A DNA stretch of 64,000 nucleotides from an uncultured Spirochaetaceae bacterium (GCA_964623865.1 CAZUVX010000001.1:171593-235592); one strand, 5' to 3'. Numbered from the stretch's first letter, positions 16,715 to 64,000 are shown. A program made the numbers and translations. The notes: a model not told the origin generated them from the sequence alone.

Positions 16715-16760
16715 GGGACCCTCCTTGCGGTGCATGAGTATGCATTCACGATACTCCGGA

Positions 16761-16789
16761 ATAGTATGGATGCATCCGGACAAGGTCAA
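16761..16789 (-). promoter_or_regulatory. Putative ilvB operon promoter
   Basis: On the minus strand: TTGACC (16784-16789), 17-nt spacer, TACTAT (16761-16766). The -10 box is bracketed by TCCGGA at 16755-16760 and 16775-16780. Confidence 0.5.
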
Positions 16790-17043
16790 CAGAAATGCAC
16801 AAAAAAATCGGGTAAATTTGCAGTCAGTACTTAGAAGGCTTCAAAACTGTACTTCACGAAGACGTAAATCTGTGAGCATTCCGCCGGAAACCCCAAAAAC
16901 GGCCAAACGTGAACGCGAAATGGCGTCGGGTCACTGCAAGCATATGCGTATCGTATACGTTACCGCCGTTCTATTGCGCATCTGCACCTTCCCCGGGCAT
17001 GCGTGTTGTGATAGTCTGCCGGTCTTCTGGAGGAAATCGGTAC

Positions 17044-36068: not shown

Positions 36069-36072
36069 CCAC

Positions 36073-39442: not shown

Positions 39443-42298
<2,856 letters not shown>

Positions 42299-45200
42299 CC
42301 CTCCCTCTCTCCGCCCAGGACGGTGCCGGCGAGGCCGACCCCGGTACGGGCGTGGAGCCGGAAGCGCCCGCGGCGCCGGAGACCGGCGCGGAGCCGGAAG
42401 CCGGCGAGGCGGAGCAAGCGGAGACGGAGTTACAGGATTCCGATGCTGCCTCAGACGAGGCGGGCGACGGCAACGAGCCGGAAGACGCGGAGCGCAATCT
42501 CTTTCTCGAGACGTTGCCCGCCGATATCCGAACGGCGTCCTTCTACGATCTGATCGACTGGACGGCGCGGTTGGGTCTGTCGACCCGGGGGTCCCGGCGG
42601 GACCTGCAGAATCGCATTGCCGAGTACTACGACATTCCCCTCAGCAGTGTCCGGCCTGCGGAAGGCGCGGGGGAGGGCCGTGAAGTGGTCATTGAGTCGG
42701 CAAACCAATCGGAGTACTTCACCCTGGATTCAGTGGAGGAGCAATACGTCCGGCTCCGCGGGAACGTGCGCCTGCGCACCCGTGGGGACCGCGATTCCGC
42801 CGTGCACATGATCGAGGCGGAGGAGATCATCTTCAATCGGGAAGAGAACAACCTTACCGCGGTGGGGAACGTGCGATACCGGATCGACCGGGAAGGGGAG
42901 GTCGAGGAGTTTACCGGGAGCACCCTTAGCTTCGAGCTGGACAGTTGGGAGGGGCAGTTCCTCCAGGGGGTCTCCTCCCGGGAGCGCGACGTTGAGGGTG
43001 AGCAAATCCGCTTCCGCTACTCCGGTGAGTACATGACCCGAACAAGAGAGGACATCGTTGTCATGGAGGACGGCGTCATTACCTCCTCCACGGCGAATCC
43101 GCCGAGCTACTCGATCCGGGCGGAGAGAATCTGGGTCCTCGGCGCAGGAGAGTGGGCCATCCGCGGTGCCCGCCTTTACGTCGGACGGGTCCCCATTCTC
43201 GTCTTTCCATTCTTCTTCAAACCGGGCGACGAGGTCTTCTTCAATCCCGTCGCCGGATCGCGCGATCGGGAAGGGGCCTTCATCCAGACAACGACCTACG
43301 TTCTCGGAGAGAAAGAGAAGGAAGACTCCGCGATTTCATTCCTCCAGGTTGCCGGCGATGAGCCGACGGGTCCCCGGGAGCGTGAGGGGCTCTTCCTGAC
43401 GACTGTGGCGGGACGGCAGGACGGGCAGGACCCTGAACGTGAGCGGCAACGAGATGTCGGTACGGTGAAGGTCCTCTTCGACGTCTACTCCAAGCTCGGC
43501 GTCTACGCCGGGGTCGACGCCGACTTGAACAACCTCGGAGCCGGCGCTGCCATGCAGGGCTCCCTGGGCGTGGCAGCCTCCCGCCATCTCTACCCGGCCG
43601 ACAGCGGGGACGGATCACTCTCACCGTATCGCATCGTGGACGAGGAGGCGCAGCAGGACTGGAACTCCACCAGCTTTCTCGGGACGGTGCTGCCCTTCCG
43701 GTACCTGTTGGATGTCACCGGCCGCGCTCGGGAGTCCTGGTTCTCAGGTAATGCGGGTGTTGAGCTCTACTCCGACCCCTTCGTCGAGTTGGACTTTGGT
43801 GACCGCGCCGAAGACATGGATTGGCTCGGGCTGCTGTCGAACGAGGAAGAGGGGGACACCGCCACAGGGGTCGCCCAAAAGAACCGGCTTCGATGGGAGA
43901 GCTCCTTTCGCCTGAACCCCTCCGTTGAGGCGCTCCAGCCGTGGGTTCGCTCCGTTTCGATTCGCGAGATCGGCGCGTCCCTCGACTGGCAGAGCCGGGA
44001 TCGCGCGGATCCGCCGGAGGAGATCGCCCTGGCCGACCGCAGCCCCGAGCAGAGCTTCTTCTATCCGACACGCTCGGTTCTTCCTTCGGTGGGACTCTCG
44101 GCGGACGGAACTCTCGTCTCGATACCGTGGACGCGTCGGCAGGCCCGGGAAGCCCGGGACGGTGACCGCGGCCGCAGCGTAACCGCCGGCTTCCGCCCGC
44201 CCTGGGAGAGCGGTGAGGAACATGACGATGATGAGCCCGACGACGAGGACGCCGGCTACCGGACACCGGACATTCGTAGCGTATCGGGGGGCGTGACCTA
44301 TCCTCAAGCCTTTGAGTCCAGTCTCGGCTACCGTCTGACCTCCACTACGACGGTCGAGAACACCTACGACGACGATGAGTGGGCGAGGCCCGAGGACGTC
44401 ACCTTCGACTACGCCTACTCCAGCGTTACGACCAACAACAGTGGACGGCTTACCTATGGATCGAAGCTCATGGAGCGTCTGGTTACCCTGGACGGGTCCG
44501 TTGAGGCAACAGGGCGGTACCGGGAGATCTACAACCACGCCGATCCCGCGGCGCAGGAGATCGAGTCGGTAGTCGAGCAGGCGGCGCGGTACTCTTCGTT
44601 TGGACTACAGAACTCCGCGTCCGCAGCCCTTGCGCCGGTGCCTGAAGATACTCCTCTGGCGGATTCCAAGTTGGAATACCGCCTTACGACGGACCTCTTT
44701 CGGATCGTCTACGACCAGGAGGTCTCCGCAGAGGAGGGACAAGAGGATCCGGTGTACCGGAACGAGAGCTTCGAGTGGTCGGATGAGTACGTCACCGCCC
44801 ACTCCCTGGGAGGTATCGTCACCGCGGCGATTCTCGACAACGACCAGTCTCTCCGGCTTTCCACGACCCTTCCGCCCCTCGAACGAACCTATGAGGGCCG
44901 TCTCACGGCTTCCGCCGGGCCCTGGAACGGCAACGTGCGGGTGGCTGCAACGGCGCCGGAGGCGGAGGAGGACCCCGAGACGGGGGAAGTGACGGAACCC
45001 GAGGACACACTCGTTTTCGATCCCATTTCCGCCTCCCAGCGACTGAGTTTCCTGGAGAACGGGGCTATCAGCCAGACTCTGCTGTACGACGTGGAAGAGG
45101 AGTACTTTGAGCGGTTGACCCTGGGACTCAAAGGTTCGATCGGTTCCGTGGACTTCCAGATGCGGCGCAGCAAGGAAGTGGCCTTTGAACGCAACTTCAT

Positions 45201-45829
45201 CCAGCAGGGGTTGTCCTCTCCCTGGGTCGAACGCGAAGAGGAGGAGCTTCGCCCGGCGAGTGCTCGAGGAACCGCGTCATACGAGTTGGACCCGTTGCCG
45301 CTGTGGAAGAACCGCGTTACTTTTGATGCGACGGCTTCGACAACGGTTGAGGCGAATCTTCAGCGCTTTACCGAAAGCAGCCTCACCTTGCGGGCCGGGT
45401 TGAACTTTGCCGTTCATGAGTTTCTGGAATTGTCCTTCAACTCGACCTCGCGGAACGACTTCCTCTATCAATACATCCCGGCGCTCGCGGAGCGAGTGGA
45501 TCGCCGGGTGCGAAACCCCTTGGTCGATGTGGCGCGGTCCTTCAACTTCTTCAACCCCGAGGATCGGGAGGCTTCGTTCTTCAACCTGCAGTCCCTCTCC
45601 GTTGAGGCGACACACCGCCTGGGCGACTGGGACCTGGTTCTCGCGTATTCCGCGCGACCGGCGCTCTCGCAGGACGTTTCCCCGCCCCGGTACGAATGGG
45701 ATTCCCGGTTCTCGGTGGTGGTTCAGTGGCGGCCGCTCCCGGAGTTACGGAGTGAAGTCTCCTATGAGGATGAGGAGCTCCAGTATCGTACCGGGGAATA
45801 GCGCGGCGCTTCCGGGTGTCGGCGTCGGC

Positions 45830-50466: not shown

Positions 50467-51654
50467 ATGTCCGTTCGAACGATCAGAGATGCAGATCTGG
50501 AGAACAAGCGTGTATTGATCCGTGCCGATTTCAACGTTCCCATCAAGGACGGCACCGTCACGGACGACAGCCGTATCACGGCGGCGCTGCCTACCATTGA
50601 GTACATTCTCAAGCAACCGGGCACCTCGATTGTGCTTTCCAGTCATCTTGGTCGTCCCAAGGGCACGCGCGACGAAGCGTTCTCTCTCAAGCCTGTGGCG
50701 ACTCGCCTGTCCGAGCTCCTCGGCACCAAGGTCAAGACGGCGGATGACTGCGTCGGTCCGGAGGTGGAGAAGGCAGTCGCCGATCTGGATCCCGGAGAGG
50801 TCCTGCTCCTCGAGAACGTACGCTTTCACAACGAAGAAAAGGAGAATGACCCGGAATTCGCCAAGCGACTCGGCCGCTTGGCGGACATTTATGTGAACGA
50901 TGCCTTCGGCAGTGCGCACCGGGCTCACGCCTCCACGGAGGGAGTTGCTCACGTTCTGCCCGCCTTCGCCGGGTTTCTTATTGAGAAAGAGGTTGCGTTC
51001 TTCGAACCCGTCGTCCGGGAGCCCGCACAACCCTTTGTTGCGATCATCGGCGGAGCAAAGGTGTCCACGAAGATCGGTGTTCTCGAGAACCTGTTGCCGA
51101 AGTGTCGGAGTCTCGTTATCGGTGGGGGAATGTCCTACACCTTCCTGAAGGCGCAGGGCCATGAGATCGGGAAGTCCCTCTTCGAAGAGGAGTACCTCGA
51201 TACGGCGAAGAGTCTCCTTTCCGACGCGGATGCGCGCGGTGTGCGCATAGTTCTCCCGGTGGATCACGTGGTCGCCCCGGAATTCAAAGAGGATGCCGAC
51301 GCCGGCACCATCGACGGCATTGAGATACCCGCGGATGAGTTGGGTATGGACATCGGACCTCGTTCCATCGAGCAGATCCGCGAGGTCATCGCGACTGCGA
51401 AGACCATCGTCTGGAACGGGCCCATGGGTGTGTTCGAGTTCGATCGGTTTGCCCGGGGGACCCTCGAGGTTGCCAAGGCCGTTGCCGAGGCTTCGGCAAC
51501 GACGATTGTCGGCGGCGGTGACTCCGTTGCGGCGGTCAACAAGTTCGGTCTTGCCGACAAGATCGATCACGTCTCCACCGGGGGCGGGGCCTCCCTCGAG
51601 TTTCTCGAGGGTAAGACTCTTCCCGGAATCGCAGCGCTTCGGTCCGACGGATAG
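50467..51654 (+). CDS. pgk: Phosphoglycerate kinase
   Basis: KRVLIRADFNVP, SHLGRPKG, and GGGDSVAAV...STGGGASLEFLEG. Confidence 0.97.
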   Translation: MSVRTIRDADLENKRVLIRADFNVPIKDGTVTDDSRITAALPTIEYILKQPGTSIVLSSHLGRPKGTRDEAFSLKPVATRLSELLGTKVKTADDCVGPEVEKAVADLDPGEVLLLENVRFHNEEKENDPEFAKRLGRLADIYVNDAFGSAHRAHASTEGVAHVLPAFAGFLIEKEVAFFEPVVREPAQPFVAIIGGAKVSTKIGVLENLLPKCRSLVIGGGMSYTFLKAQGHEIGKSLFEEEYLDTAKSLLSDADARGVRIVLPVDHVVAPEFKEDADAGTIDGIEIPADELGMDIGPRSIEQIREVIATAKTIVWNGPMGVFEFDRFARGTLEVAKAVAEASATTIVGGGDSVAAVNKFGLADKIDHVSTGGGASLEFLEGKTLPGIAALRSDG

Positions 51655-51764
51655 AGGGCGCCGTCCCGACACGTGTAACGCATCAACAACAGGCGCTGAA
51701 CACGGCCGGCGGTTTAGCCGGAACACGCAATGATCGAACCTGGCAGGAAGGGGAGGAGTAAACC

Positions 51765-52520
51765 ATGAGAACCACCTACATCGCCGGCAACTGGAAGATG
51801 CACAAGACCATCTCGGAGGCGCGTGCCCTGGCCGGCGAATTGCGGACCGAACTGGCCGGCAGCTCCCACAAGATCATGATTGCGCCGCCCTTTACGGCGT
51901 TGGCCGGTGTTGCCGCCGTTCTCGAGGGGTCTAACGTCCTGCTCGGCGCCCAGAACATGGCTCCGGAGGAGTCCGGTGCGCACACCGGTGAAGTCTCCGT
52001 AACCATGCTCAGGGATGCGGGTGCGTCGGTGGTGATTCTCGGTCACTCCGAGCGCCGCCACGTCTACGGTGAGGACGACGCCTTGATCAACCGGAAGGTC
52101 AAGCTCGCCCTGGATCACGCCATGGAGGTGATTCTCTGCGTGGGCGAAACGCTGGAGGAGCGGGAGGCCGACAAGGTGCGCGCCGTCGTCGAGAGCCAGC
52201 TGGAGGGCGGACTCGCAGGCGTGCCCAAGGAAGCTCTCGAGAGGATTACTATTGCGTACGAGCCGGTATGGGCAATCGGGACCGGAAAGACCGCCACGCC
52301 GGCGGATGCAGCTGAGGCGCACGGGATGGTCCGGAGCAAGCTCGACGGGATGTACGGGAGCGGTGCCGGCAACGGCGTCACGGTGCAGTACGGCGGATCG
52401 GTGAAGCCGGACAACGTTGCAGGACTGATGGCGGAGGAGCAAATCGACGGCGCCCTGGTCGGCGGGGCCTCACTGAAGGCCGAAACCTTCGTTCCGATTG
52501 TTCAATTCGACGCGCAGTAG
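51765..52520 (+). CDS. tpiA: Triosephosphate isomerase
   Basis: IAGNWKMH, ILGHSERR, AYEPVWAIGTG, and YGGSVKP. Confidence 0.97.
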   Translation: MRTTYIAGNWKMHKTISEARALAGELRTELAGSSHKIMIAPPFTALAGVAAVLEGSNVLLGAQNMAPEESGAHTGEVSVTMLRDAGASVVILGHSERRHVYGEDDALINRKVKLALDHAMEVILCVGETLEEREADKVRAVVESQLEGGLAGVPKEALERITIAYEPVWAIGTGKTATPADAAEAHGMVRSKLDGMYGSGAGNGVTVQYGGSVKPDNVAGLMAEEQIDGALVGGASLKAETFVPIVQFDAQ

Positions 52521-52576
52521 ACGACTGCGTATTACGCGAAGTATAGTTGCGCGGACTGTAGAGAGGAATCATTCGT

Positions 52577-52993
52577 ATGGGTGCATTGAGCATTCTGTTG
52601 CTTGTCGTATTCGGTATTACCTCAGTCCTCCTGGTTGTCGTGGTGTTGCTCCAGGATGAGGGTGGCGAGGGCCTCGGTGGCATATTCGGCGGGGGCGGAG
52701 CCGGACCGGTCGGGAATCGGTCGGGGAACATCCTCACCAGAACGACCACCGTTCTCGGCACCATCTTCCTGGTGGCCGCCTTTGGACTGGCGTGGTTGAA
52801 TCGAAGCCCCGATACCGGGGACGTGGAGGCGGCCGCCCGCCGGCTGGAGGGTGACCAGGCCACTCAGTGGTGGGAGGTCGAGGAGGAAGATGGCAATGAC
52901 GAACCCGCACTCGACGACGAGGACGGCGACTCAGGGGACGTTGCGCCCGCGCGAGATGAGGTGGGCGGTGACGAGGAGACCTCTGCGGAGTAA
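52577..52993 (+). CDS. secG: Preprotein translocase subunit SecG with an acidic C-terminal extension
   Basis: LLVVVVLLQDEGGEGLGGIFGGG, then a second TM segment TTVLGTIFLVAAFGL. Follows tpiA, as in many bacteria. Confidence 0.85.
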   Translation: MGALSILLLVVFGITSVLLVVVVLLQDEGGEGLGGIFGGGGAGPVGNRSGNILTRTTTVLGTIFLVAAFGLAWLNRSPDTGDVEAAARRLEGDQATQWWEVEEEDGNDEPALDDEDGDSGDVAPARDEVGGDEETSAE

Positions 52994-52999
52994 CACGCG

Positions 53000-53413
53000 G
53001 TGAGGATAGCCGTTGTCTTCTTTCCACAAGCTCACCGGACCGGGCTCCTGGAGCTGGCCAAGGGGTTGAGTCGGGGCATCGAGGCGCAGGGCCACCAGGT
53101 GGACCTTATCGATGGAACCCGAGACGTAAACACTAAGCTCACGATCTATGAGTACATTGCCGTAGGGACCGAGCAAACGAGCTTCTTCGGCGGGAAGATT
53201 CCCCCCAAGGTCGGCGAGTACCTGAAGAACGCCGGAATCGTCGGCGGAAAGAAGTCCTTTGCCTTTGTGCTGAAGCGACCTGTGGGTACATCGAAGACGC
53301 TCCGGTCACTCATGAATACCATGGAGGCGGAGGGGATGTTTCTCCGTGTCTCCGACGTACTTGCATCCCCTGAAGGGGCCGAGGCCGTAGGAAAGCGCCT
53401 GAAGATAGGATGA
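53000..53413 (+). CDS. Hypothetical flavodoxin-fold-like protein
   Basis: GTG start. Alternating beta/alpha pattern beginning MRIAVVFFP. No cofactor motif recognised. Confidence 0.5.
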   Translation: MRIAVVFFPQAHRTGLLELAKGLSRGIEAQGHQVDLIDGTRDVNTKLTIYEYIAVGTEQTSFFGGKIPPKVGEYLKNAGIVGGKKSFAFVLKRPVGTSKTLRSLMNTMEAEGMFLRVSDVLASPEGAEAVGKRLKIG

Positions 53414-53462
53414 CCGGTCCGACGCCGGGTGGTCCCGGTGAACGGACCGGTTGCTTTCTCTC
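53414..53462 (+). terminator. Rho-independent terminator
   Basis: CCGGTCCG (53414-53421) pairs with CGGACCGG (53443-53450), with an inner CCGGG/CCCGG stem, followed by TTGCTTTCTCT. Confidence 0.65.
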
Positions 53463-53484
53463 GATGCCTCAAACACACGCGTAG

Positions 53485-54297
53485 GTGAGCGAGCCAGCGG
53501 TGGAAACGTATTACGACATACTTGGACTTGACAGCTCCTGCTCGCAAGAGGAAATAAAGCGCGCCTTCAGAAGCAAAGCCAAGGAGCTTCACCCGGACGT
53601 GGCGTCGCCCGTGGGGAGCTCGGCGGAGCGGATGCGCGTTCTGATCCAGGCCTACAAGATTCTTGCGGATCCCGAGCAGCGTCGTCACTACGATCGCACT
53701 CATTTCATCCACAGGCGGAAGTATCGGTTCGATTACCGCTCCTTCCTGAGAGAGCGGAAGAACGATCTCGGAAGCCAGGCGAAGCTCATCTTCTTCGATC
53801 TTCTTCACGACTATCCGGATGAGGCGGTGGAGCTCTTCGATGCGCGTTTCCGGGATCGCGAGTCTCTCATGTGGGACTACCTCGGGCGTGAGGATTTCAT
53901 GGATTGCGCCTTTCTCCTCGCCGAGGAGTACGAGCGCCGAGGCGATCTCGTGCAGGCATATCGACTCCTCACGGCGATCGCAGTGCACGAGCAGCTGCAC
54001 CCCTATTTCCGGCACTTCTTCCAGGAGGTCGTCGACCGACTGAGGAACCTCGTCTGTTTCAAGATGTTCGAGTCTCTCGATGACGAAGTAGTCCTGGGGT
54101 ACATTGAAGAACTGATCGAGTTCGATTTTACCCGAAAGGAGACCGCCTTCTATCTCAAGAAGGCCGCTGAGCTGTATCTTCGCCGGGAGAACGTGGCGGA
54201 TGCGAAAGACTGTCTTGAACGAGGATTGGAACTCGATGAGAAGCTCCCCGGCATCAAGAAGCTGCAGGAGCAGATTTCGTTGCGGCAGTGCGTTTAG
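53485..54297 (+). CDS. J-domain (DnaJ-like) protein
   Basis: TYYDILGLDSSCSQEEIKRAFRSKAKELHPD (HPD motif), then a helical TPR-like C-terminus. GTG start is uncertain. Confidence 0.8.
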   Translation: MSEPAVETYYDILGLDSSCSQEEIKRAFRSKAKELHPDVASPVGSSAERMRVLIQAYKILADPEQRRHYDRTHFIHRRKYRFDYRSFLRERKNDLGSQAKLIFFDLLHDYPDEAVELFDARFRDRESLMWDYLGREDFMDCAFLLAEEYERRGDLVQAYRLLTAIAVHEQLHPYFRHFFQEVVDRLRNLVCFKMFESLDDEVVLGYIEELIEFDFTRKETAFYLKKAAELYLRRENVADAKDCLERGLELDEKLPGIKKLQEQISLRQCV

Positions 54298-54361
54298 GCC
54301 GTGCCCGCGGCGATCAAGACGTTCGCTCCGGGAGGGTGGGCGTGGATGGAAGGTTTATTGC

Positions 54362-55405
54362 ATGAGAAGAGTACAACCTCTGATAGTTGTAGTTATTCTG
54401 CTGGCGGGTGCTGCAGCGGCGCCGGCACAGGTACTGGACAAGCCCGTTGCAGTGGTAAGTCTCCATGAAACGGCCGACATCGGTCAGCGCGCCATGCGCC
54501 TGCAGAGCCGGGTTCTCGAGGAGCAGCTTGGTCGCGCCCTGACGAGTGAGGAGCGGCGGGAATTGCTGCAGGCGCAAATCAGCGAAGAGCTCATCAACCA
54601 GGCCGCCGCCCAGGCGAATATTCGTGTCGGTGAGCGCGAAGTCGAGCAGGCCATTACCAATCAGCGTGCGAACCTCGGCCGGCCTGTTACCGAGGAGCAG
54701 TTCCGGCAACTCATCGAGGATCAGGCTGGAATGACCTGGCAGGAGTATCGCGATCAGATTCGGCAACGGCTCATCCAGGAGAAGTTCGTTCTGCAGGAGA
54801 AGCAGGACGTGTTTCAAGCGATCCAGGAGCCGAGCGCCCGGGAGGTTCGGCGCTTCTACGAGGAGAATGCGACGGATTTCTCCAATCCGGCAATGGTGCG
54901 TTTCGACCACATCTTCGTGGAGACGCGTGGGAGTGGCGGGGATACGGCTCAGAGTAAGCGAGACCGAATCGAGGAGCTCTACGACGAAATCCGATCCGGC
55001 GAGTCCACCTTCGACGAGGTCGCGGATCGCTCTGTGGACGACGCAGGCTACAGCGCCGGCGATTTCGGCTACCTGATGCGTCGAGACGGTAACAGCCGTC
55101 AGCTTCTGGGACAGGACTTCATTGACGAGGTCTTCAGCATAGAGGAGGGGGACATCAGTGATGGTGTGCTGAAGTCGAACATGGGCTATCACATCGTCAA
55201 GGTGACCAACCAGCGCCGTGCGCGCATCCTGGACCTGAATGATCCCGTCCTGCCCGGTCAGAACGTCACCGTACGAGATCAGATTGTGAACTATCTCCTC
55301 GGGAACGAGCAGCAGCGCGCATTTCAGCGTGCTCTGGAAGAGGTGGTGCAGGAGCTACGGAATCAGGCGGAGGTGCGCATATTCGAGGAGAACCTCGACT
55401 GGTAG
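54362..55405 (+). CDS. SurA/PrsA-like periplasmic parvulin-type peptidyl-prolyl isomerase
   Basis: Signal peptide IVVVILLAGAAAAPAQ, SurA-N-like chaperone region, and parvulin domain (MVRFDHIFV...GDFGYL...GYHIVKV). Confidence 0.82.
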   Translation: MRRVQPLIVVVILLAGAAAAPAQVLDKPVAVVSLHETADIGQRAMRLQSRVLEEQLGRALTSEERRELLQAQISEELINQAAAQANIRVGEREVEQAITNQRANLGRPVTEEQFRQLIEDQAGMTWQEYRDQIRQRLIQEKFVLQEKQDVFQAIQEPSAREVRRFYEENATDFSNPAMVRFDHIFVETRGSGGDTAQSKRDRIEELYDEIRSGESTFDEVADRSVDDAGYSAGDFGYLMRRDGNSRQLLGQDFIDEVFSIEEGDISDGVLKSNMGYHIVKVTNQRRARILDLNDPVLPGQNVTVRDQIVNYLLGNEQQRAFQRALEEVVQELRNQAEVRIFEENLDW

Positions 55406-55427
55406 CCCCGGGGAGTGTGGTTAGTCT

Positions 55428-55838
55428 ATGGGAGCGCGTCGTCAAGCCCGCATACTCGCCTTTCAAGCGCTCTACGCATGGGAAACCACGGGAGGGTCCG
55501 TCGAGGAGGCGTGCACCTTCACCTGGCTTGATGAAGAGATGGCGGACGAAGAAGCAGCGAGCTTTGCCCGCCTTCTCGTCGCGGGGGCCCTCGAAAACAT
55601 CGATTCAATCGATGAGGCAATTTCGTCGCAACTCGAGCATTGGACCATCTCCCGCATCAATCGGGTCGATCTGGCAATCCTGCGCCTGAGTGCATATGGT
55701 CTACTCTACCTCAAGGACATCCCCGGCTCTATTACGATCGACGAGGCGATTACCCTAGCCAAGAGATACGGAACGCGCGACTCCTACCGCTTCGTCAACG
55801 GCGTCCTGGACGGGATTCTCAAGAGGAAGGCGGGGTGA
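55428..55838 (+). CDS. nusB: Transcription antitermination factor NusB
   Basis: ARILAFQALYAWE, DLAILRLSAYGLLY, INEAITLAKRYG-like, and FVNGVLDGI. Confidence 0.92.
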   Translation: MGARRQARILAFQALYAWETTGGSVEEACTFTWLDEEMADEEAASFARLLVAGALENIDSIDEAISSQLEHWTISRINRVDLAILRLSAYGLLYLKDIPGSITIDEAITLAKRYGTRDSYRFVNGVLDGILKRKAG

Positions 55839-57637
55839 CGCGGCAGCGCCTTCTGTCGGTTGCTCTCGTCGCGTTCGGCGTGGTCGCTGCGGCAGTTGTA
55901 ACGGTTGTGGTCGTTCGCGGCGTTGCCTCGATCCGACGCGATCGGCTTCTCGAGTACACAATGCGCCGGGTGGATTCACGCCTGGCAGACCGGGAGTGGG
56001 AGAGTGCCGCCCGATTGCTGGACGATTTCGCATCGGTCAAGCTCGGCGGGGACCAGTGGAGAGAGGTCCTTCGACGCGCCTGGGTGGTTGCCGGGAATCG
56101 GGACGGCTGGTCGGGTTTCGGGCGTCTGGCATCACGCGCCGCGGCGCAGCATCCCCGCAACGGCGATCTGGTCTTCCTCGACATTTCCGCCGCGTATCGG
56201 GCGGACGAGCCCGCCTCCCCCTCGGCGGTACCTCCAGGGGCGCGCTATGACGCTCTGCGGGCGCTGCTCTTCCTGGAAGGAGGGGCGGCCGGCGACGCCC
56301 AACCCGGCGCACCCGAGGAGACGCCTCGTGACGCCCCGGATCCGCGGGAGCTTTCGATCTCCAACGATCGCGTCGAAAGGGTTCTGAACGCAGCGCTTCT
56401 TCAGTCCGCGGACAGTCTGGCTGCTGCGCACGAAGCTACCGGAGATCCTCGACTTGCCGTGGATGCCGCCCTTGTACGTCTGCGGGAAGGGGAAGCGGCC
56501 GCTGCGCACGAGGAGATCTCTCTTCGCAGGGAGGGCGTGTCGCCGGTCTTCCGTGCAAAGGTTGCTCTGTCGGCGGCAGACTTCACCGGCGCGGTAGAGG
56601 CGCTTTCGCAGGGGAATTCCGGGGCGGGCAGCCTCTCGGCACCCGACTCCGCCCGCCCCGACGCCCCGGCGGAAGCGCACCTTGGTGAAGGCGAAGGGCG
56701 AGCGCCGGACAATGCGACTCTCCTCAAAGGCGATGCTCTCATCGGTCTGGGCGACTTCGGCCGCGCGGAGCGGGTGTACCGGGAGGTGCCGAGGAGGGAG
56801 TGGAGTCCTGAGGCCTTCCAGAGCGTTGCCTTCCTGATCCGCTCCCGGGGCGGAGAGCCGGAGGAAACCTTGCGCGCCGGGGTTTCTCGATGGTCGGGTG
56901 ATCCGGAGTCGGCACGAGCGCTGGCGGTCCACATCGTCGATGAGCGCCCGGAAGAGGCGCGCGCCCTTCTCGATAGTTTCGCCGAGCAGTCCCCGAAGAT
57001 GCGAGTGACGTCCTTGCTGCTGTTCGACGAGTTGAAGATGTCGCAGCGGGTGCGTGGGACCCTGTGGCGGATGTACAACGAGGCCGACCAGGCGGCATCC
57101 GGGGGGAGCCAAGCCGTCGGGGAGTACCTCGCGTGGTACCTCGCCGGGCTCGGCGACTGGGACGATCTGGAACGAGTGGTGTCCGATCCCGCCTCCGACT
57201 CCGTCGACTGGGTTCGCTTCTATCAGGGCGTTCTGGCGGTGCGCTCCGGGCGATCGCAGGAGGCGCGCGACGCCTTCGCAGAGATCGATGCACAGGGAAT
57301 GCGTATCGCCGCACGCTACAACGAGGGCCGCGTCGCCCTTGGCATGGGCGACCTCGACGGCGCCCAGGCCGCACTGGAGGAGGCGCAGGATGCACTGCTT
57401 CGGCGCCCTCGAGACGGAGACCGCGACCGCGACCTGTCCCGGGTGCTCCTGGAACTCGGGCGCGTCCACCTGTTGAAAGGGAGGGAAGAAACCGGATACG
57501 GTATGATTTCTCGGGCGCTTCGGTACAACCCGGGCAACGCCACCGCACGCAACCTGCTGGAAGAGGGATCGGTCTCCGGCACACCAATGCGCGAAGGCAC
57601 CATGGATGATACGACTAAAGAGTCCCAAGCAGATTGA
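55835..57637 (+). CDS. Membrane-anchored TPR-like protein
   Basis: The GTG start overlaps the nusB stop (GTGA). N-terminal TM segment LLSVALVAFGVVAAAVVTVVVV, then Ala/Arg-rich helical repeats. Confidence 0.6.
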   Translation: MTRQRLLSVALVAFGVVAAAVVTVVVVRGVASIRRDRLLEYTMRRVDSRLADREWESAARLLDDFASVKLGGDQWREVLRRAWVVAGNRDGWSGFGRLASRAAAQHPRNGDLVFLDISAAYRADEPASPSAVPPGARYDALRALLFLEGGAAGDAQPGAPEETPRDAPDPRELSISNDRVERVLNAALLQSADSLAAAHEATGDPRLAVDAALVRLREGEAAAAHEEISLRREGVSPVFRAKVALSAADFTGAVEALSQGNSGAGSLSAPDSARPDAPAEAHLGEGEGRAPDNATLLKGDALIGLGDFGRAERVYREVPRREWSPEAFQSVAFLIRSRGGEPEETLRAGVSRWSGDPESARALAVHIVDERPEEARALLDSFAEQSPKMRVTSLLLFDELKMSQRVRGTLWRMYNEADQAASGGSQAVGEYLAWYLAGLGDWDDLERVVSDPASDSVDWVRFYQGVLAVRSGRSQEARDAFAEIDAQGMRIAARYNEGRVALGMGDLDGAQAALEEAQDALLRRPRDGDRDRDLSRVLLELGRVHLLKGREETGYGMISRALRYNPGNATARNLLEEGSVSGTPMREGTMDDTTKESQAD

Positions 57638-58370
57638 CGGCATTCGAGAAGCATCCAGACTCCTGGTTACGGTCCTGCAGGAGACCGCGCAGCTTGTCGA
57701 GCCCGGCGTAACGACCGGTGAGCTCAGCGAGTACGCGAACAGGCGCATCACCGCCCTCGGCGCGCGAGCGGCCTTCCTGGGATACATGGACTTTCCCGCC
57801 GCCATGTGCACCTCCGTGGACGAGGCGGTGATTCACGGCATTCCCAACGATACGAAGCTCCGAGAGGGACAAATCGTAACTATCGACTTCGGAGTTGAGT
57901 ATCGGGGCTACTACAGTGATTCCGCCGTCACCATGCCGGTCGGGCGGGTCTCTCAGGAGGTGCAGGCCCTCCTGAAGGCGACGAAGGAAAGCCTGTGGCT
58001 CGGGATCGAGCAGGCGAAGGCGGGCAACCGGGTAAACGACATCTCCCGGGCGATCTATCACTACAATCGACGCGCCGGCTACGGCATCGTGCGGCCATAC
58101 TGCGGTCACGGCGTCGGGCTCGAGATCCACGAGGACCCGCAGGTGCCGAACTACGTCGGCACCGGGCCCAATCCGCGGCTGAAGCCGGGTATGGTGCTGG
58201 CCATTGAGCCGATGATCAACCTGGGCGGTGACGATGTGCGCCTTCTGGACGACGACTGGACCGTCGTTACGGCGGATTCTTCAGTTTCAGCCCACTTCGA
58301 GCACACAGTTGCCATCCATGAGGATCACACCGAAGTTCTGACACAGTGGGACGGAGAGGACGGGCCCTGA
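57606..58370 (+). CDS. map: Type I methionine aminopeptidase
   Basis: FPAAMCTSVDEAVIHGIP, VTIDFGVEYRGYYSDSA, CGHGVGLEIHE, and LAIEPM. Confidence 0.96.
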   Translation: MIRLKSPKQIDGIREASRLLVTVLQETAQLVEPGVTTGELSEYANRRITALGARAAFLGYMDFPAAMCTSVDEAVIHGIPNDTKLREGQIVTIDFGVEYRGYYSDSAVTMPVGRVSQEVQALLKATKESLWLGIEQAKAGNRVNDISRAIYHYNRRAGYGIVRPYCGHGVGLEIHEDPQVPNYVGTGPNPRLKPGMVLAIEPMINLGGDDVRLLDDDWTVVTADSSVSAHFEHTVAIHEDHTEVLTQWDGEDGP

Positions 58371-58493
58371 CGGGTGACCAATGCCCCGGGAACGCCTGCG
58401 GGTTTCGGCTACACGAGGCGGGTCGGGACTCACACGACCACCTTGCGGAAACACACGACCCGGGCGTGAAACCACGCGTCCCGGTCCGGGAAA

Positions 58494-58522
58494 GTGACAT
58501 TCCGTTTGTTTGCCAATATACT
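58494..58522 (+). promoter_or_regulatory. Putative htrA promoter
   Basis: GTGACA (58494-58499), 17-nt spacer, TATACT (58517-58522). AGGAGG at 58531-58536. Confidence 0.4.
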
Positions 58523-58544
58523 CTTCGCCTAGGAGGCCGGATTA

Positions 58545-60032
58545 GTGATGAATAGCCGTACACCACTTCACTCACGGAAGTTCTTCATGATCAACCTGGT
58601 GCTGGTGGGGCTGATAATCGGCTTCTCCATGTCCATGGTCGTATTCTCCTGCTCTACCCGGATTCAACCCGGAGGGGCCGCTCTCGCACAGCGCACCGGA
58701 GAGGATGTCGATATCCAGATTGAAGGATTGCAGAGCTCGTTTCGCCAAGTCGCCCAGGCGGTCATGCCCACGGTGGTCAAGCTCAACGTGGAGGAGCTAC
58801 GGTCGCAGCAGCGGCCCCAGGGAGACAATCCCTTCTTCGACTTCTTCTTCGGCGATACCGACGATGAGGACACACCCATCCCAACCCAGGGTCTCGGTTC
58901 GGGTGTGCTTGTCCGGCAGGAGGGATCCACCTACTATGTCCTGACGAACGATCACGTCGTGGCGGAGGCGGACAGTATTGAGGTCGTCCTGGACGACGAG
59001 AACTCCTACGAGGCGACCCTCGTTGGAACGGACCAGCGGAAGGACCTCGCCCTCGTTTCATTCGAGGAACCCGACCGCGAGCTGCCCCTCGCACGGTTCG
59101 GCAATTCGGACGAGCTGGCGGTGGGGGACTGGGTTCTTGCCGTGGGCAGTCCCTTCGGGTTCCAGTCCACGGTCACCGCGGGCATCGTGAGCGCTCTCGA
59201 ACGGCGGGGTGGGCCCCAGGGCAACATCAACGACTTCATTCAGACGGATGCAGCCATCAACCAGGGCAATTCAGGTGGTCCGCTCATCAACCTTCGCGGC
59301 GAGGTCGTCGGGATCAACACGTGGATCACCTCGCAGACGGGCGTCAGCGCGGGTCTGGGTTTCTCCATCCCCATTAACAACGCCAGTCGCGCCATTGAGG
59401 ATTTCATTGAGAGAGGCTCCATTCAGTACGGCTGGCTCGGGGTGAGCATTCGTGACGTTTCCCGGGAGGACGCCGGAGAGCTCGGGCTCGAGAACCGGCA
59501 AGGGGCCCTCGTTCATCACGTTTTCGTGGGATCTCCCGCGGAGGGATCCGGTCTGCAACCGGGAGACTTCATTCGCACCGTTAACGGCACCGAGGTGTAT
59601 GATGCTGATGAGCTCATTCTGGAAGTGGGCGACCTGCCCGTCGGGGAGGTTGCGAGGTTCGAGTTGATCCGTCAGGGAGAGGACCGGGTCGTAGACGTCA
59701 CCATCGAAGAGCGCGAGGCCGAACGTACCATCCAGCAACAGAATGCGCAGCTCTGGCCGGGGTTGAGCGTCTTCCCCTTGACCGACGATATTCGGGAGGA
59801 ACTGGAGCTGCAACGGAGGACCGAGGGTGTCATCGTGACGACAGTCGAGTCTCAAACCCCTGCCGCCAATGCAGGCTTGCGTGCCGGTGACGTGATCGTT
59901 TCGCTGAGCGGCCGAAGTGTTGCAAACATCAGAGAGTTCTACCGGGTTCTCAACGATGATCCGGGTAGCGACCTCGAGGTTGAGTATCTCCGGGAAGGGG
60001 AGAGTACGACGACCACTCTGGAGTATCCGTGA
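58545..60032 (+). CDS. htrA: HtrA/DegP-family periplasmic serine protease with two PDZ domains
   Basis: N-terminal TM segment. Catalytic triad context: LTNDHVV, DLALV, GNSGGPLIN. Two PDZ-like regions. Confidence 0.93.
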   Translation: MMNSRTPLHSRKFFMINLVLVGLIIGFSMSMVVFSCSTRIQPGGAALAQRTGEDVDIQIEGLQSSFRQVAQAVMPTVVKLNVEELRSQQRPQGDNPFFDFFFGDTDDEDTPIPTQGLGSGVLVRQEGSTYYVLTNDHVVAEADSIEVVLDDENSYEATLVGTDQRKDLALVSFEEPDRELPLARFGNSDELAVGDWVLAVGSPFGFQSTVTAGIVSALERRGGPQGNINDFIQTDAAINQGNSGGPLINLRGEVVGINTWITSQTGVSAGLGFSIPINNASRAIEDFIERGSIQYGWLGVSIRDVSREDAGELGLENRQGALVHHVFVGSPAEGSGLQPGDFIRTVNGTEVYDADELILEVGDLPVGEVARFELIRQGEDRVVDVTIEEREAERTIQQQNAQLWPGLSVFPLTDDIREELELQRRTEGVIVTTVESQTPAANAGLRAGDVIVSLSGRSVANIREFYRVLNDDPGSDLEVEYLREGESTTTTLEYP

Positions 60033-60646
60033 GCATTGCCAAAGAGTTCCTTACCTACGACACGGTCCGAAACAACGCCATCAAGCTGGCCCATCGGATC
60101 CATTCCGACGGGTTCGTTCCGGATGTCATATACGTGAGTCTCCGTGGAGGCGCGTATCTGGGGAACGTAATCAGCGAGTACTTCAAGGTTGTTCGGACGG
60201 GCCACAGACCGGTCTTCTATGCCGCCGTGGTCGCCCGTTCCTACTCGGACATTCACCGGCGGGAGAAGGTAATGGTGGACGGCTGGACGTACACGCCGGA
60301 ACATCTGCGCAGCGGGGACAAGGTGCTCATTGTAGACGATATCTTCGACTCCGGTCGTACGATCAACCACCTGGTGGACCTGGTTCTCGAACAGGGCATT
60401 CCCCGTCAGGACATTCGCGTCGCAGTCCACGACTACAAGATCCGCTCCTTCGTTCAGGAGACCCTGCCGATCCACCCCGACTACTACTGCCGCAAGCATC
60501 TCGTGACCAAGCCTGAGGAAGACACCTGGGTTCACTATCTCAGTCACGAGATCGTCGGGCTCGGGGAAGAGGAGATCGAGACGCAGTACTCAAGTGACAA
60601 GGAGGTCGTGGCGATTCTTAAAGAGATCAGCTCGTACCGGTCATGA
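60029..60646 (+). CDS. Phosphoribosyltransferase-family protein (purine PRT-like)
   Basis: PRPP-binding motif KVLIVDDIFDSGRT. The GTG start overlaps the htrA stop (GTGA). Confidence 0.75.
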   Translation: MSIAKEFLTYDTVRNNAIKLAHRIHSDGFVPDVIYVSLRGGAYLGNVISEYFKVVRTGHRPVFYAAVVARSYSDIHRREKVMVDGWTYTPEHLRSGDKVLIVDDIFDSGRTINHLVDLVLEQGIPRQDIRVAVHDYKIRSFVQETLPIHPDYYCRKHLVTKPEEDTWVHYLSHEIVGLGEEEIETQYSSDKEVVAILKEISSYRS

Positions 60647-63600
60647 GAACGCGGCGCCATCTCGTACTGATTCTGGTCTTGCTCATGTCGACCTTTGCCG
60701 GCACGGCCCAGGAGTCGGCTGCGACCGACAATCACGAAGGACGTGATACCGACGCATCGGGCGGCTCGGTCTCTTCCTCTTCCCCTTCATCCCAGGATCG
60801 GCCCATACGCTTCTCACCGTCGCCGGGCACCTATGCGGAGACCGTCATGGTCTCGGTGGGTGACGACCGCGGAGCGGAAGCGCCTCGGTTATGGTACCGC
60901 TTTGCCGATGACGACGACGCGGCCTTCCTCCCCCTCGAGGGCGGCATAGTTCTCGGGGAGGTCCCCGGGGTCGCCTATCGCTACACGATCGAGATCGCGG
61001 AGACCGCCGCTTCCGGTCGGACCGCCCCGGACGGCGCCGGGAGCGTGGAGGTTCTCGCCCGGGCGAGTTACGTTGTTGATCCCCGGGTTCCCCCTCCGCC
61101 GGAACCCGACCCGGTGCCGGGGGTGTACCACGACACCGTGCAGCTGAGCCTAACCGGGGCGGAAGGCACCGAGGTGACTTACGCCTTTGCCCGCGATTCG
61201 GGCCCCATGAGGACCTATACCGATCCGGTAACGCTTGCCGCCAGGGAGGGGGAGCGCAGCGAGTACAACGTCATGGCGTACGCCTCATCGGAGGCGGGAC
61301 ACCGGAGCGAGGTCATCCGTGGGCGCTACGTCATTGATGCGACGGGCGCTGCGCGCGGCTCGCCCTCCCTGCGCATTGAAAGCCCGATTTCCGGGACTTT
61401 CGGCAACCGTCAGCTCCTGGTCGTGGAGAGCACCGGAGTCTCGAGGGTTCGCTACACGACCGACGGCAGTGACCCGCTGGAGGGTGGTACCGCTTATGCC
61501 GGTCCGGTACGGTTGGAGCGGACCGGTCCCTACACCGTGCGGGTGGCTGCCACCGGCGCGGACGGCCGCGTCTTGTCGGACGCCGTGGAGGTCACCGTCG
61601 AAGGGCGCGAGCTGCTCGATCTCCCACAAGGCGTCATCACCGAGGACCGGCGCATATCGCCTCCCGGCGGCACCGCCTACTTCACCACCGACGACCGCGC
61701 CCCAACGGCAGGGAGCAACCCCTTCGACAGCCCCATTCCGGTGTCACCCTCCGCCGGCGTGCGCCGCATCCTTCCGGTGCGCGTTCACGTGCCCGAAGGT
61801 GGTGACTTGCCGGCCGGAGCGTATCGATACACCTACGTTCTCGAGGGACGTACGCCGGCACGGCCTGAGGCTATCACCTATCACGGCCCTGAGACCGACG
61901 GCACTCTCCATCTGAGTCTACTCTCCTCTCCCGGCGCGGAAATCCGCTACTCCACCGACGGCTCTCCGCCGCAGCAGGGCCGTCTCTACACGGAGAAGGC
62001 CGCCATTGACCTTCCCTCCGACCGTGATCAGGCGACCATGGTGATGCGCGCAGTGGCGGTCTATTCCGGCACCGTCGAGAGCACTGAGCTCTCCAAAGAG
62101 ATCTCCTTCGACACCCGGTCGCCGGCGCCCCCTTCAGTCTCACTTTCCGGGTCGATGCATACGGCCGTCGCCACGATTGAGGTGTCACGCCCTGCGGGGA
62201 CGGACGTCGTCTATGCAGTCGGCCCTGCCGAGGGGGCAACCCCGGAACCCACGCGGTGGTCTCCGACGGTGCAGGGGGACACCCTTCGAATCCCCGCCCC
62301 TCCCGGAAGCGACCGCGCCGTCACGGTAGCCTTCGCCTCCGTGGACGCCTACGGTAACCGCTCTGCGGAGGTCGAGACCGTGGATCTTCGGCTTGACGGC
62401 AAGGGACCCCCTCCTCCCCGGATCGCAAGGGAGGGACGGCGGCTGGTAATCGAGGGAGAGAACGTCCGGTACTACCTGCGCCGGGATCGTGAGGACCGGG
62501 ACTCGGCGGCCGCCGCCACCTTCGCCGCCTACGATGGTCCGCTCTTTCTCGAGGCGCCCCCGGGGGGGCGAATGGTCCACACGGTTCGCGCCTTCTCGCA
62601 GGACCAGGTGGGAAACCGAAGCGCCCTCGTCTCCGAGCGCGTCGTGAGCGATGCCCGACGGGCCGAATTGCCGGGAAGCCTCGGCGTGGAGGATGGAGGG
62701 CTCTACCGGCGCGCCGTCACATTGCGGAACACCTCCGAAGAGGAGGACTTTCAGGTTCGCTACGCCGTTTCCTTCAGCGATGACGCGGACGAGGAGGTCA
62801 CGGACCCCGGGACTCCCCCTGCGGACACAACCCTGGGGGACGGCGCACTCTTCGACGCACCGGAAGGTGTCGAACGGCGGTATGTCGTCGCCCTTCAACC
62901 CGTCTTTACCAGCACGAACCGAACCGGATCGGTGGAGCTGCTCAGCTTCACCGTCGACCGGAAGCCGCCCCGACCGCCCAGCGTCAACGGAATAGAGGAT
63001 GGTCGGTCCTACGGCTCCGCGGTCTCCTTCACGGTTCAGCCTTCGGGGGAAGGTGATCGTGTGGAGTACCGGCTGACACGGCAGGGTGGGGACGAGGGCG
63101 GTGGCGGAAGCGGGACCGCTTCGGATCCCGGCGCCGCGGGATCCTCTTCGGACTCTTCGTCGGAAGCGTCGCTCGGGGATGAGTGGCTCTCCCTGACCGG
63201 GGGGGACGACCTCAGGCGCGTGGACGTTGCCGTCGGGACGGATCGCATATTCACCCTGTCGGCGCGAAGCGTCGACGCGGCGGGGAACGTTTCCGAGATG
63301 GAAGCGCCGGTCAAGTTCCGGATCGATCGTGCCGAACCGGCGCCGCCGCAAATATCCGTGGACGGCGCCGAACCAACCGACCATGGGCGTTACCTTGCAA
63401 CGGGTGCCGTTACCGTTACCATCGATGCCGAAGGCGCGGAAACCTACTACCGGGTGTCTCGAGACGGTGCCGCTTCACGGGAGCGGGGAGCCCTTTCTCC
63501 TGCAGACCAGCCGTACGAGGGACCCTTCGACGTCGAAGCCGTTGCAGATGAGACCGTGCGAGTTGACATCCAGGCGATGACGCGTGATGCGGTGGGGAAT

Positions 63601-64000
63601 GAGAGTGCCGCGTCGCCGCCGGTGTCGATCACAATCGATCGGCGCCCCCCCGATCCACCCGAGGTGGTCGACGTCACGACGGACGATACCGGGCGTGCGG
63701 GAAGGGTGATCTGGCGTCATGGGAAGGACGCCGTGGTTCGCTATCGCGTTACAGCCGGGGGCGCGGGAGACGGGGAGTTCCGGACGACCCGGCGCATCGG
63801 CAGGTGGCACCTGCCCGACGGAGAGTCCGCGGGACGCCTCGAGTACTACGCCGAGGACCGAGCGGGAAACCGCAGCGGCGTCGCGACGGTCGCGGTGCGG
63901 GGCTTCTCGGCGGCGCCGCGCCCGGAGCTCGCCGGGGTGGATGCAGACGCCGTCTACGGCTCCGCCGTGGTCGTGCAGAACCGTACCGCAACCGGAACCG
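60643..64000 (+). CDS. Giant modular secreted/surface protein, N-terminal 1119+ aa (3' end outside the window)
   Basis: I translated frame 1 by hand from the ATG at 60643 (overlapping the PRT stop, ATGA) to 64000 and found no stop codon. Signal peptide MRTRRHLVLILVLLMSTFAGTAQ. Repeated Y(T/S)TDGS(D/P)P modules are followed by at least 5 Ig-like modules ending D-x-x-G-N-x-S...D-R-x-x-P-x-P-P. Absent from the supplied ORF track. Confidence 0.85.
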   Translation, partial: MRTRRHLVLILVLLMSTFAGTAQESAATDNHEGRDTDASGGSVSSSSPSSQDRPIRFSPSPGTYAETVMVSVGDDRGAEAPRLWYRFADDDDAAFLPLEGGIVLGEVPGVAYRYTIEIAETAASGRTAPDGAGSVEVLARASYVVDPRVPPPPEPDPVPGVYHDTVQLSLTGAEGTEVTYAFARDSGPMRTYTDPVTLAAREGERSEYNVMAYASSEAGHRSEVIRGRYVIDATGAARGSPSLRIESPISGTFGNRQLLVVESTGVSRVRYTTDGSDPLEGGTAYAGPVRLERTGPYTVRVAATGADGRVLSDAVEVTVEGRELLDLPQGVITEDRRISPPGGTAYFTTDDRAPTAGSNPFDSPIPVSPSAGVRRILPVRVHVPEGGDLPAGAYRYTYVLEGRTPARPEAITYHGPETDGTLHLSLLSSPGAEIRYSTDGSPPQQGRLYTEKAAIDLPSDRDQATMVMRAVAVYSGTVESTELSKEISFDTRSPAPPSVSLSGSMHTAVATIEVSRPAGTDVVYAVGPAEGATPEPTRWSPTVQGDTLRIPAPPGSDRAVTVAFASVDAYGNRSAEVETVDLRLDGKGPPPPRIAREGRRLVIEGENVRYYLRRDREDRDSAAAATFAAYDGPLFLEAPPGGRMVHTVRAFSQDQVGNRSALVSERVVSDARRAELPGSLGVEDGGLYRRAVTLRNTSEEEDFQVRYAVSFSDDADEEVTDPGTPPADTTLGDGALFDAPEGVERRYVVALQPVFTSTNRTGSVELLSFTVDRKPPRPPSVNGIEDGRSYGSAVSFTVQPSGEGDRVEYRLTRQGGDEGGGGSGTASDPGAAGSSSDSSSEASLGDEWLSLTGGDDLRRVDVAVGTDRIFTLSARSVDAAGNVSEMEAPVKFRIDRAEPAPPQISVDGAEPTDHGRYLATGAVTVTIDAEGAETYYRVSRDGAASRERGALSPADQPYEGPFDVEAVADETVRVDIQAMTRDAVGNESAASPPVSITIDRRPPDPPEVVDVTTDDTGRAGRVIWRHGKDAVVRYRVTAGGAGDGEFRTTRRIGRWHLPDGESAGRLEYYAEDRAGNRSGVATVAVRGFSAAPRPELAGVDADAVYGSAVVVQNRTATGT

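Follow-up and report, generated by a model that had tools for sequence, protein, structure and literature searches.

The DNA analysed here is a stretch of 64,000 nucleotides (the window) from an uncultured Spirochaetaceae bacterium (GCA_964623865.1, CAZUVX010000001.1:171593-235592), and its last part is occupied by a giant gene on the plus strand (60643..64000) that runs off the end of the window. Translation of frame 1 from the ATG at 60643 to base 64000 gave 1119 codons without a stop. An earlier reading made from the DNA by itself (the sequence-only reading) had described this open frame, naming a missed stop or frameshift as the result that would speak against it, and no stop was present in any of the 1119 codons. 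With a stop probability of 0.022 per codon at the local composition (68 % G+C), a run of this length is expected by chance with a probability of about 1.3e-11, and the remaining five frames across 60643-64000 hold 11-38 stops each. The closest upstream in-frame stop ends at 60621, and because the ATG at 60643 is the sole ATG, GTG or TTG downstream of it, the start codon is unambiguous. The ATG and the TGA stop of the phosphoribosyltransferase (PRT) gene just before it (60029..60646, plus strand; Pfam Pribosyltran 4.7e-11) overlap by four bases, ATGA, visible in tcATGAgaac as had been read before.

The giant gene is indeed missing from the open reading frame (ORF) track, as had been pointed out. 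ORFs that run off the end of the stretch go unlisted, which is a property of the tool and not of the biology. The largest gene of the region is hidden if the ORF listing alone is used, and ORFs at stretch edges need a separate pass. A 399-aa ATG-started antisense ORF (62185-63384, minus strand) lies wholly within the giant gene. We rejected it as a high-GC shadow ORF; its G+C content at the first codon position (GC1 0.76) exceeds that at the third (GC3 0.73), a pattern that does not favour coding.

Using a word-indexed protein search, we recovered a full-length counterpart of 1828 aa (P0001), 99 % identical over all 1119 residues with six substitutions, which is deposited as 'MAG: chitobiase/beta-hexosaminidase C-terminal domain-containing protein [Spirochaetaceae bacterium]'. 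Its contig (JBKHBF010000007.1, GCA_046542485.1; hereafter L002) matches the last 13.4 kb of the window (50643-64000) at 99.835 % nucleotide identity without gaps, and on this basis we take L002 to be a legitimate extension of the window: it carries the same gene, in a strain that is nearly identical. Of the 1828 codons the window holds the first 61 %, and the remainder was read from L002 (10001-15487). Nothing of substance differs between P0001 and the gene in the window. The same search returned further full-length homologues at 66 %, 45 %, 27 % and 25 % identity, and these, together with the 99 %-identical protein and the Pfam domains above threshold described below, show that the gene is real. 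A pseudogene or non-coding reading of the frame was excluded by conservation, Pfam matches and the open frame. The giant gene is a single-copy chromosomal gene whose product is predicted to be exported by Sec, and the full product has a mass of 192 kDa, a pI of 4.8 and not a single cysteine.

The protein begins with a predicted signal peptide (aa 1-23, MRTRRHLVLILVLLMSTFAGTAQ; 60643..60711; this and all following modules are on the plus strand), modelled as a helix at residues 2-20 in an AlphaFold2 (AF2) prediction of the 1119-residue N-terminal part, which has a mean predicted local distance difference test score (pLDDT) of 71.7. A hydrophobic h-region is found in 95 of the 101 full-length members of the family to which the protein belongs. 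Because the lipobox cysteine is absent, the signal is predicted to be of the signal peptidase I type. It is followed by a Ser/Asp-rich linker (aa 24-52; 60712..60798) with a pLDDT of about 25 and no secondary structure, the model being disordered over residues 21-53. Both the signal peptide and the Ser-rich linker of a giant modular protein had been recognised by the sequence-only reading.

Beyond the linker the N-terminal part is modelled as all-β, with low-confidence linkers at the boundaries deduced from the Pro-rich D(R)xxPxP motifs. Eleven β-sandwich modules are complete within the window and a twelfth begins there, where about ten had been counted before, and the full protein has 13 (D1-D13). 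Profile-profile comparison with hhalign separated them into two classes at probabilities of 90-99 %, D3-D5 on one side and D1, D2 and D6-D13 on the other. The latter, class B, comprises ten divergent immunoglobulin (Ig)-like modules that weakly resemble OmpL47. D1 (aa 53-148; 60799..61086) is a class B Ig-like β-sandwich that starts with PxPGxY, pairs with D2 in hhalign at 97 % and has β-strands in the AF2 model, and D2 (aa 149-236; 61087..61350) pairs with D6, D7, D10 and D13 at 96-98 %. The three modules of the other class are D3 (aa 237-321; 61351..61605), a CHB_HEX_C_1/Fn3_assoc module with RYTTDGSDP at aa 271 that, taken alone, scored 34.6 bits against PF13290 and 32.5 bits against PF13287; D4 (aa 322-402; 61606..61848), a divergent CHB_HEX_C_1 module (24.5 bits against a PF13290 cut-off of 22, 19.0 bits for PF13287) that pairs with D5 at 94 %; and D5 (aa 403-492; 61849..62118), with RYSTDGSPP at aa 436 and scores of 31.7 and 28.7 bits for the two families.

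The remaining modules are again class B. The motif DxxGNxS, together with hhalign, identifies D6 (aa 493-588; 62119..62406; DAYGNRS at aa 568), D7 (aa 589-672; 62407..62658; DQVGNRS at aa 654, with a weak barrel_OmpL47 match of 15 bits), D9 (aa 776-898; 62968..63336; DAAGNVS at aa 878, with weak Big_13 and barrel_OmpL47 matches), D10 (aa 899-1002; 63337..63648; DAVGNES at aa 982) and D11 (aa 1003-1092; 63649..63918; DRAGNRS at aa 1072). D6 and D9-D11 are also seen in the AF2 model, and D10 and D11 in their single-module NCBIfam scores. D8 (aa 673-775; 62659..62967), seen in AF2 as well, lacks the motif and pairs with D12 at 98.7 %. D12 starts at 63919 and is cut by the end of the window at 64000; its rest, to aa 1184, was read from L002 and P0001, and D13 (aa 1185-1275), assigned from AF2 and hhalign, lies wholly beyond the window in the same sources. 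Within D9 we noticed a Gly/Ser/Asp-rich insertion (aa 816-845; 63088-63177), predicted to be disordered (pLDDT about 25), which breaks an otherwise confident β-sandwich and whose sequence is unlike the matching stretch of P0002.

Two statements of the sequence-only reading can be judged on this map. The at least five DxxGNxS modules with Pro-rich boundaries that it placed after the CHB_HEX_C-like modules are all present by motif position, hhalign and AF2. The CHB_HEX_C_1/Fn3_assoc modules exist as well, but there are three of them and not about five, as D1 and D2 group with the DxxGNxS class. Searches with hidden Markov models (HMMs) for PF13290 and Ig/Fn3 families, an empty result of which it had named as evidence against itself, gave 74.6 bits for CHB_HEX_C_1 (PF13290) and 66.9 bits for Fn3_assoc (PF13287) in the 1119-aa protein, above the gathering cut-offs of 22 and 23. 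On single modules these two models did not match D1, D2 or D6-D8 and gave D10 13.8 bits, under the cut-off, and Pfam as a whole found nothing in D1, D2, D6, D7 or D8 taken singly. Big_13 (PF19077) reached 20.3 bits in the 1119-aa protein against a cut-off of 27 and was matched solely through the C-terminal 30 residues of the model with DxxGNxS; P0002 is borderline for it at 27.9 bits. The NCBIfam OmpL47-type domain NF047446 scored 59.4 bits in the 1119-aa protein and 69.6 bits in P0001, above the cut-off of 40, as the sum of several weak stretches, single class B modules giving 15-26 bits. Two other NCBIfam models, DUF499_antiphage (30 bits, cut-off 1200) and MXAN_2561 (16-22 bits, cut-off 150), were matched through local similarity of Ig-like segments and set aside. 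No internal repeats were found by BLASTP self-comparison, the modules being too divergent, and hhalign was needed. Foldseek comparison of the N-terminal model returned strings of Ig or fibronectin type III domains, with GhpA of Aureispira the best (1.7e-21), followed by contactin, gp130 and SbsB.

The part of the protein that most likely sets its function lies beyond the window, and the architecture described before had left it out, as it could not be seen there. In the AF2 model of P0001 residues 1185-1828 (predicted template modelling score 0.71), D13 is followed by a short helix cap and then by a long, regular β-helix of right-handed type (pLDDT 85-98). This head (aa 1276-1712, about 440 aa) has a DUF1565/pectate-lyase-like N-terminal cap and is followed by a low-confidence tail of about 115 residues (aa 1713-1828) ending in YDIGADEFYR. 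The tail motif RP...YDIGADEFYR is common to many, not all, family members. A DIGA[YD]E tail of this kind is associated with the 'choice-of-anchor Q' domain; no NCBIfam match to that domain was obtained at E<=0.1 and we do not claim it. P0001 stayed under the cut-off for Beta_helix (PF13229; 24.3 against 25.9 bits), although the right-handed β-helix fold is evident in the AF2 model, and its relatives gave faint Pel9A-like (PF22842) matches in the head. The family member P0006 passed DUF1565 (PF07602; 30.2 against 20.3 bits) and Pect-lyase_RHGA_epim (32.3 against 27 bits), with a trace of PelN. Neither single-sequence nor profile searches of the PDB yielded a match for the β-helix.

A head of this fold raises the question of catalysis. 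The giant protein could be an extracellular polysaccharide-active enzyme whose β-helix is a lyase, hydrolase, esterase or epimerase and whose Ig-like and CHB_HEX_C modules are spacers or carbohydrate-binding accessories; such modules occur in many multi-domain glycanases and phage depolymerases. Foldseek comparison of the head against the PDB points in this direction, as it returned β-helix proteins exclusively and the top matches were pectin methylesterases, inulin fructotransferases, AlgE epimerases, the RbmB lyase, GH110 and phage tailspike depolymerases, besides the adhesin PfbA. The two Pfam families passed by P0006 and the match of CHB_HEX_C_1 to the accessory domain of a solved β-hexosaminidase (6q63, 2.7e-4) point the same way. 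However, all the structural matches are weak (E about 2e-4 to 1e-3, template modelling score 0.2-0.47, identity 9-15 %) and reflect the generic β-helix fold. Conservation in the head across 96 family members falls on glycines, on N1646, N1672 and N1700, which form an Asn ladder, on W1345 and W1705, and on the cap motif Y-V-x3-G-x-D-x3-G-x4-P. Among these 96 members, aligned at a remote 22-30 % identity, the β-helix core has no conserved acidic or basic residue (D, E, K, R or H), the residue types on which PL1/PL9 lyases (an Arg/Lys base with Ca-binding Asp) and GH28-type hydrolases (Asp/Glu) depend, and this would argue against a shared catalytic site. No catalytic family was matched by Pfam, NCBIfam or PDB profile searches, and the Pfam and NCBIfam scans of P0001 found no GH20 or any other glycoside hydrolase catalytic domain; the name given in NCBI describes no more than the three accessory modules. 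A fixed, position-conserved stalk of 13 modules would also be unusual for a glycanase. Taken together, we consider an enzyme tentative and rather unlikely.

The family was collected by an exhaustive HMMER search with a profile of the C-terminal domain, which gave 5614 proteins when E<=1e-3 was required and 181 representatives when E<=1e-30 was. Among the 150 best matches, most are 1550-1850 aa long and carry the domain at the extreme C-terminus, there are well over 100 clusters of similar length, and the median length of the 101 full-length members is 1695 aa. In 95 of these 101 a hydrophobic N-terminal segment is followed directly by a PxPGxY module. The taxonomy of the family rests on the seven clusters that carry an organism name, all seven of them Spirochaetes, Spirochaetota, Spirochaetales, Spirochaetia or Spirochaetaceae; one carrier, Spirochaeta cellobiosiphila (WP_028973154.1), is in culture. 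A word-indexed search with the C-terminal domain recovered two fragments only, and one with the family profile mostly unrelated CHB_HEX_C proteins. GTDB genome contig scans with the 1119-aa protein and with P0150 gave no relative, and literature searches on the family found nothing. The sequence is already in NCBI under a generic domain-based name and the family is uncharacterised.

An end-to-end alignment of 30 members, at 22-30 % identity, preserves the module boundaries. We built position-specific HMMs for D1-D13 from these 30 and applied them to 70 independent members. All 13 modules were detected in 33, the perfect order D1-D13-β-helix in 19, the median colinear run was 11 and the head was present in 69. 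Since the position-specific models recover D1-D13 in order among independent members, the 13 positions are orthologous across the family, and the architecture is old and fixed rather than a recently expanded repeat array.

The giant gene lies in an ordinary chromosomal context, with MutS2, UvrA, V-type ATPase, pgk and tpi genes in the window. The order pgk-tpi-secG-x-(dnaJ)-surA-like-nusB-TPR-map-htrA-PRT-giant is kept in L002 and in two related loci, L003 and L005, including the succession of PRT and giant gene, with dnaJ absent in L005; L005 retains this order though its giant protein is only 25 % identical. Past the giant gene, on the opposite strand of the same three loci, there are one or two small or medium genes and then a TP_0126-family gene, and a fourth locus, L004, retains map-giant-398aa-TP_0126. 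The TP_0126-family (OmpW-like) gene is near the giant gene in all four related loci. In L002 the convergent neighbours lie at 15508-16743 and 16753-17364 (both minus strand), just past the end of the window. The adjacent gene in L002 encodes a 411-aa lipoprotein of pI 4.05 with the lipobox LLVGC and faint β-propeller hints; counterparts are present in L003 and L005, and in L004 its place is taken by a 398-aa gene. The lipoprotein and the TP_0126-family gene could be partners or anchors of the giant protein, or merely syntenic. Scans of the region for tRNAs, Rfam families, promoters and terminators revealed nothing relevant. Elsewhere in the window, two further large plus-strand ORFs, of 1195 aa (42214-45801, directly after uvrA) and 627 aa (36037-37920), had no Pfam match at E<=1e-5.

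Most proteins encoded in the compared part of the window (51765-64000) are acidic, for example HtrA (pI 4.3), SecG (4.05), the SurA-like protein (4.8) and Map (5.1), which may point to a salt-adapted organism. As its neighbours are acidic too, the low pI of the giant protein is probably proteome-wide and not specific to it. This bears on the idea, raised before, that the protein is a surface layer (S-layer)-like or sheath lattice protein covering the cell. It is large, acidic and Cys-free, and SbsB is among the many Ig-string matches of its stalk, weakly, at 5.7e-8. Against this, acidity loses its meaning if it is proteome-wide, no S-layer homology (SLH) or other S-layer anchoring domain was found by Pfam and NCBIfam scans, and lattice formers do not typically combine a beads-on-a-string stalk with a β-helix head. 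We regard a lattice protein as very improbable.

Export by a Sec-type signal without lipobox is indicated by the predicted signal peptide. Of the earlier designation 'surface protein' the export part stands, whereas surface placement goes further than the signals found. Extension of the contig, which had been recommended for finding the stop and a C-terminal sorting signal, gave the end of the gene after 1828 codons through L002 but no known sorting signal. P0001 gave no Pfam or NCBIfam match to an autotransporter barrel or to Por_Secre_tail of the type IX secretion system, it lacks LPXTG and a lipobox, its C-terminus (...YDIGADEFYR) has no hydrophobic segment, and no cysteine is present anywhere.

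The lack of any anchor or outer-membrane crossing signal is what a periplasmic structural protein or spacer would show. Such a protein would be Sec-exported and kept between the membranes, with its fixed length serving as scaffold or ruler, and it would be functionally linked to the neighbouring SurA-like peptidyl-prolyl isomerase, HtrA, TP_0126-family outer membrane protein and lipoprotein. The strikingly uniform length and module order across deep divergence and the conserved synteny with the surA-like, htrA and TP_0126-family genes fit this picture. However, synteny with housekeeping genes (pgk, tpi, nusB, map) says little about function, the remote relative OmpL47 is surface-exposed though likewise without an anchor, and the giant protein diverges far more than the neighbouring periplasmic proteins and is enriched in single-nucleotide polymorphisms (SNPs), which suits an exposed protein better. 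Confinement to the periplasm is, in our view, unlikely.

The divergence was estimated at two distances. In the L002-L003 comparison, identity is 68 % for the giant protein and 81-97 % for most neighbours, the exceptions being the TPR protein (61 %) and the downstream lipoprotein (63 %). In the L002-L005 comparison, the giant protein is at 24 %, the housekeeping enzymes are at 50-65 % and the SurA-like, TPR and TP_0126-family proteins at 29-33 %. The TPR protein, encoded between nusB and map (55640-57637, plus strand), has a rate of change close to that of the giant protein; its start call varies, with a 665-aa ORF in the window and a 600-aa call in L002. In the comparison of the window with L002, 13 of the 22 SNPs fall in the giant gene, which makes up 25 % of the compared length (binomial p=7e-4, 4-fold enrichment). 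Seven of the 13 are synonymous and six nonsynonymous, a ratio that speaks of raised diversity and does not demonstrate dN/dS >1; positive selection is not claimed. We noticed that the SNPs are clustered, with seven in 305 bp (61701-62005, in D4-D5; L002 11059-11363) and four in 109 bp (63234-63342, in D9; L002 12592-12700), and that the 3.4 kb upstream of the giant gene (map, htrA, PRT) contain none. The clustering suggests recombination tracts or strain heterogeneity limited to parts of the stalk. Overall, the alignments portray a giant gene with constrained architecture and fast-evolving sequence. Exposed envelope proteins typically evolve fast in sequence.

Large secreted bacterial proteins of Ig-like repeats with a β-helix domain are a known kind, to which the giant protein belongs, and we looked for the closest described systems. 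OmpL47 of Leptospira interrogans (LIC13050) is a non-lipoprotein with a signal peptidase I site that is surface-exposed by biotinylation, proteinase K treatment and immunofluorescence (PMC2698987). The two proteins share the signal peptidase I type of signal, the lack of lipidation, acidity and tandem small β modules, and the class B modules match NF047446; OmpL47, however, has 39 kDa and no β-helix. The giant protein is not its orthologue, as the equivalog model NF047441 Lepto_OmpL47 was matched over about 45 residues at 33.5-37 bits, well under the cut-off of 250. For Leptospira LIC10774, the title of Passalia et al. 2020, as cited in PMC11350617, reports a surface protein that binds host components. 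Members of the LIC10774/LIC10365 family (NF047854, DUF1565 β-helix surface proteins) have the same type of N-terminal cap, and some 250 residues of P0006 can be aligned to the family model (3.6e-12). In contrast to the giant protein they are about 360 aa long without an Ig stalk; P0001 has no match to the family and P0006 reaches 46 bits against a cut-off of 380. The GhpA 'grappling hook' of Aureispira (PDB 9fly and related entries), one of the large fibrillar Ig-repeat proteins of bacteria and the best structural match of the stalk, also has a long stalk of Ig-like beads, but identity is 11-13 % and size, secretion route and terminal domains differ, so that the resemblance is one of fold only. 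PfbA of Streptococcus pneumoniae (4mr0), pectin methylesterase (2nsp), AlgE (5lw3), RbmB (9ozl) and phage tailspikes have the right-handed β-helix in common with the head; the catalytic residues are not shared with the giant protein, and PfbA is LPXTG-anchored.

On balance we favour an exported adhesin-like or fibrillar binding protein of the envelope, with a probability of roughly 0.5. The Ig-like string would form a semi-rigid stalk of about 13 x 4 nm, around 50 nm if extended, which would hold the head off the envelope. The β-helix head would be a ligand-binding domain, with a polysaccharide or matrix component as the most plausible ligand, and would catalyse no conserved reaction. The giant protein may in this way act as an adhesin-like or fibril-like envelope protein, because the stalk would present a ligand-binding head and because its remote relatives OmpL47 and LIC10774 are reported to lie on the surface and to bind host components. 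Several points weigh against this interpretation. The stalk length is calculated, not measured. Among solved structures, those closest to the β-helix are for the most part carbohydrate-active enzymes, and CHB_HEX_C modules are usually found alongside glycosidases. The conservation in the head rests on alignments of a repetitive fold at 22-30 % identity, in which a catalytic residue could be missed through errors of register. The searches gave neither an outer-membrane anchor nor a secretion signal, so the protein could remain periplasmic, and both Leptospira links, to OmpL47 (33-37 bits, cut-off 250) and to the LIC10774 family (P0006 only, 46 against 380), are remote.

A more specific proposal, which we put forward as speculation with little weight, is that the giant protein is a vertically inherited core component of the envelope rather than an accessory adhesin. 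It would be a fixed-length fibril or spacer with 13 non-interchangeable Ig-like positions and a β-helix at its end, its dimensions under selection and its surface fast-evolving. Its way to the outer membrane, or its attachment there, would correspond to none of the known secretion or anchoring signals, possibly helped by the convergent neighbours, the acidic β-propeller-like lipoprotein and the TP_0126/OmpW-like barrel.

These results define an uncharacterised family of proteins of about 1700 aa, the named members of which (n=7) are all spirochaetes. What lifts it above the routine is the fixed 13-position architecture, the conserved synteny, the lack of a known anchor or secretion signal and the cultured carrier. 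Should the head prove to be an enzyme after all, the family would represent a new group of polysaccharide-active β-helix proteins. Little is known about the envelope and surface proteins of spirochaetes that live freely, and no resolved route is known by which spirochaetes place on the surface proteins that are neither lipoproteins nor barrels, such as OmpL47. The presence of the family in Spirochaeta cellobiosiphila makes localisation and function testable in a cultured organism, and a conserved family of such fixed architecture could become a handle on how non-lipoprotein, non-barrel proteins reach the spirochaete surface.

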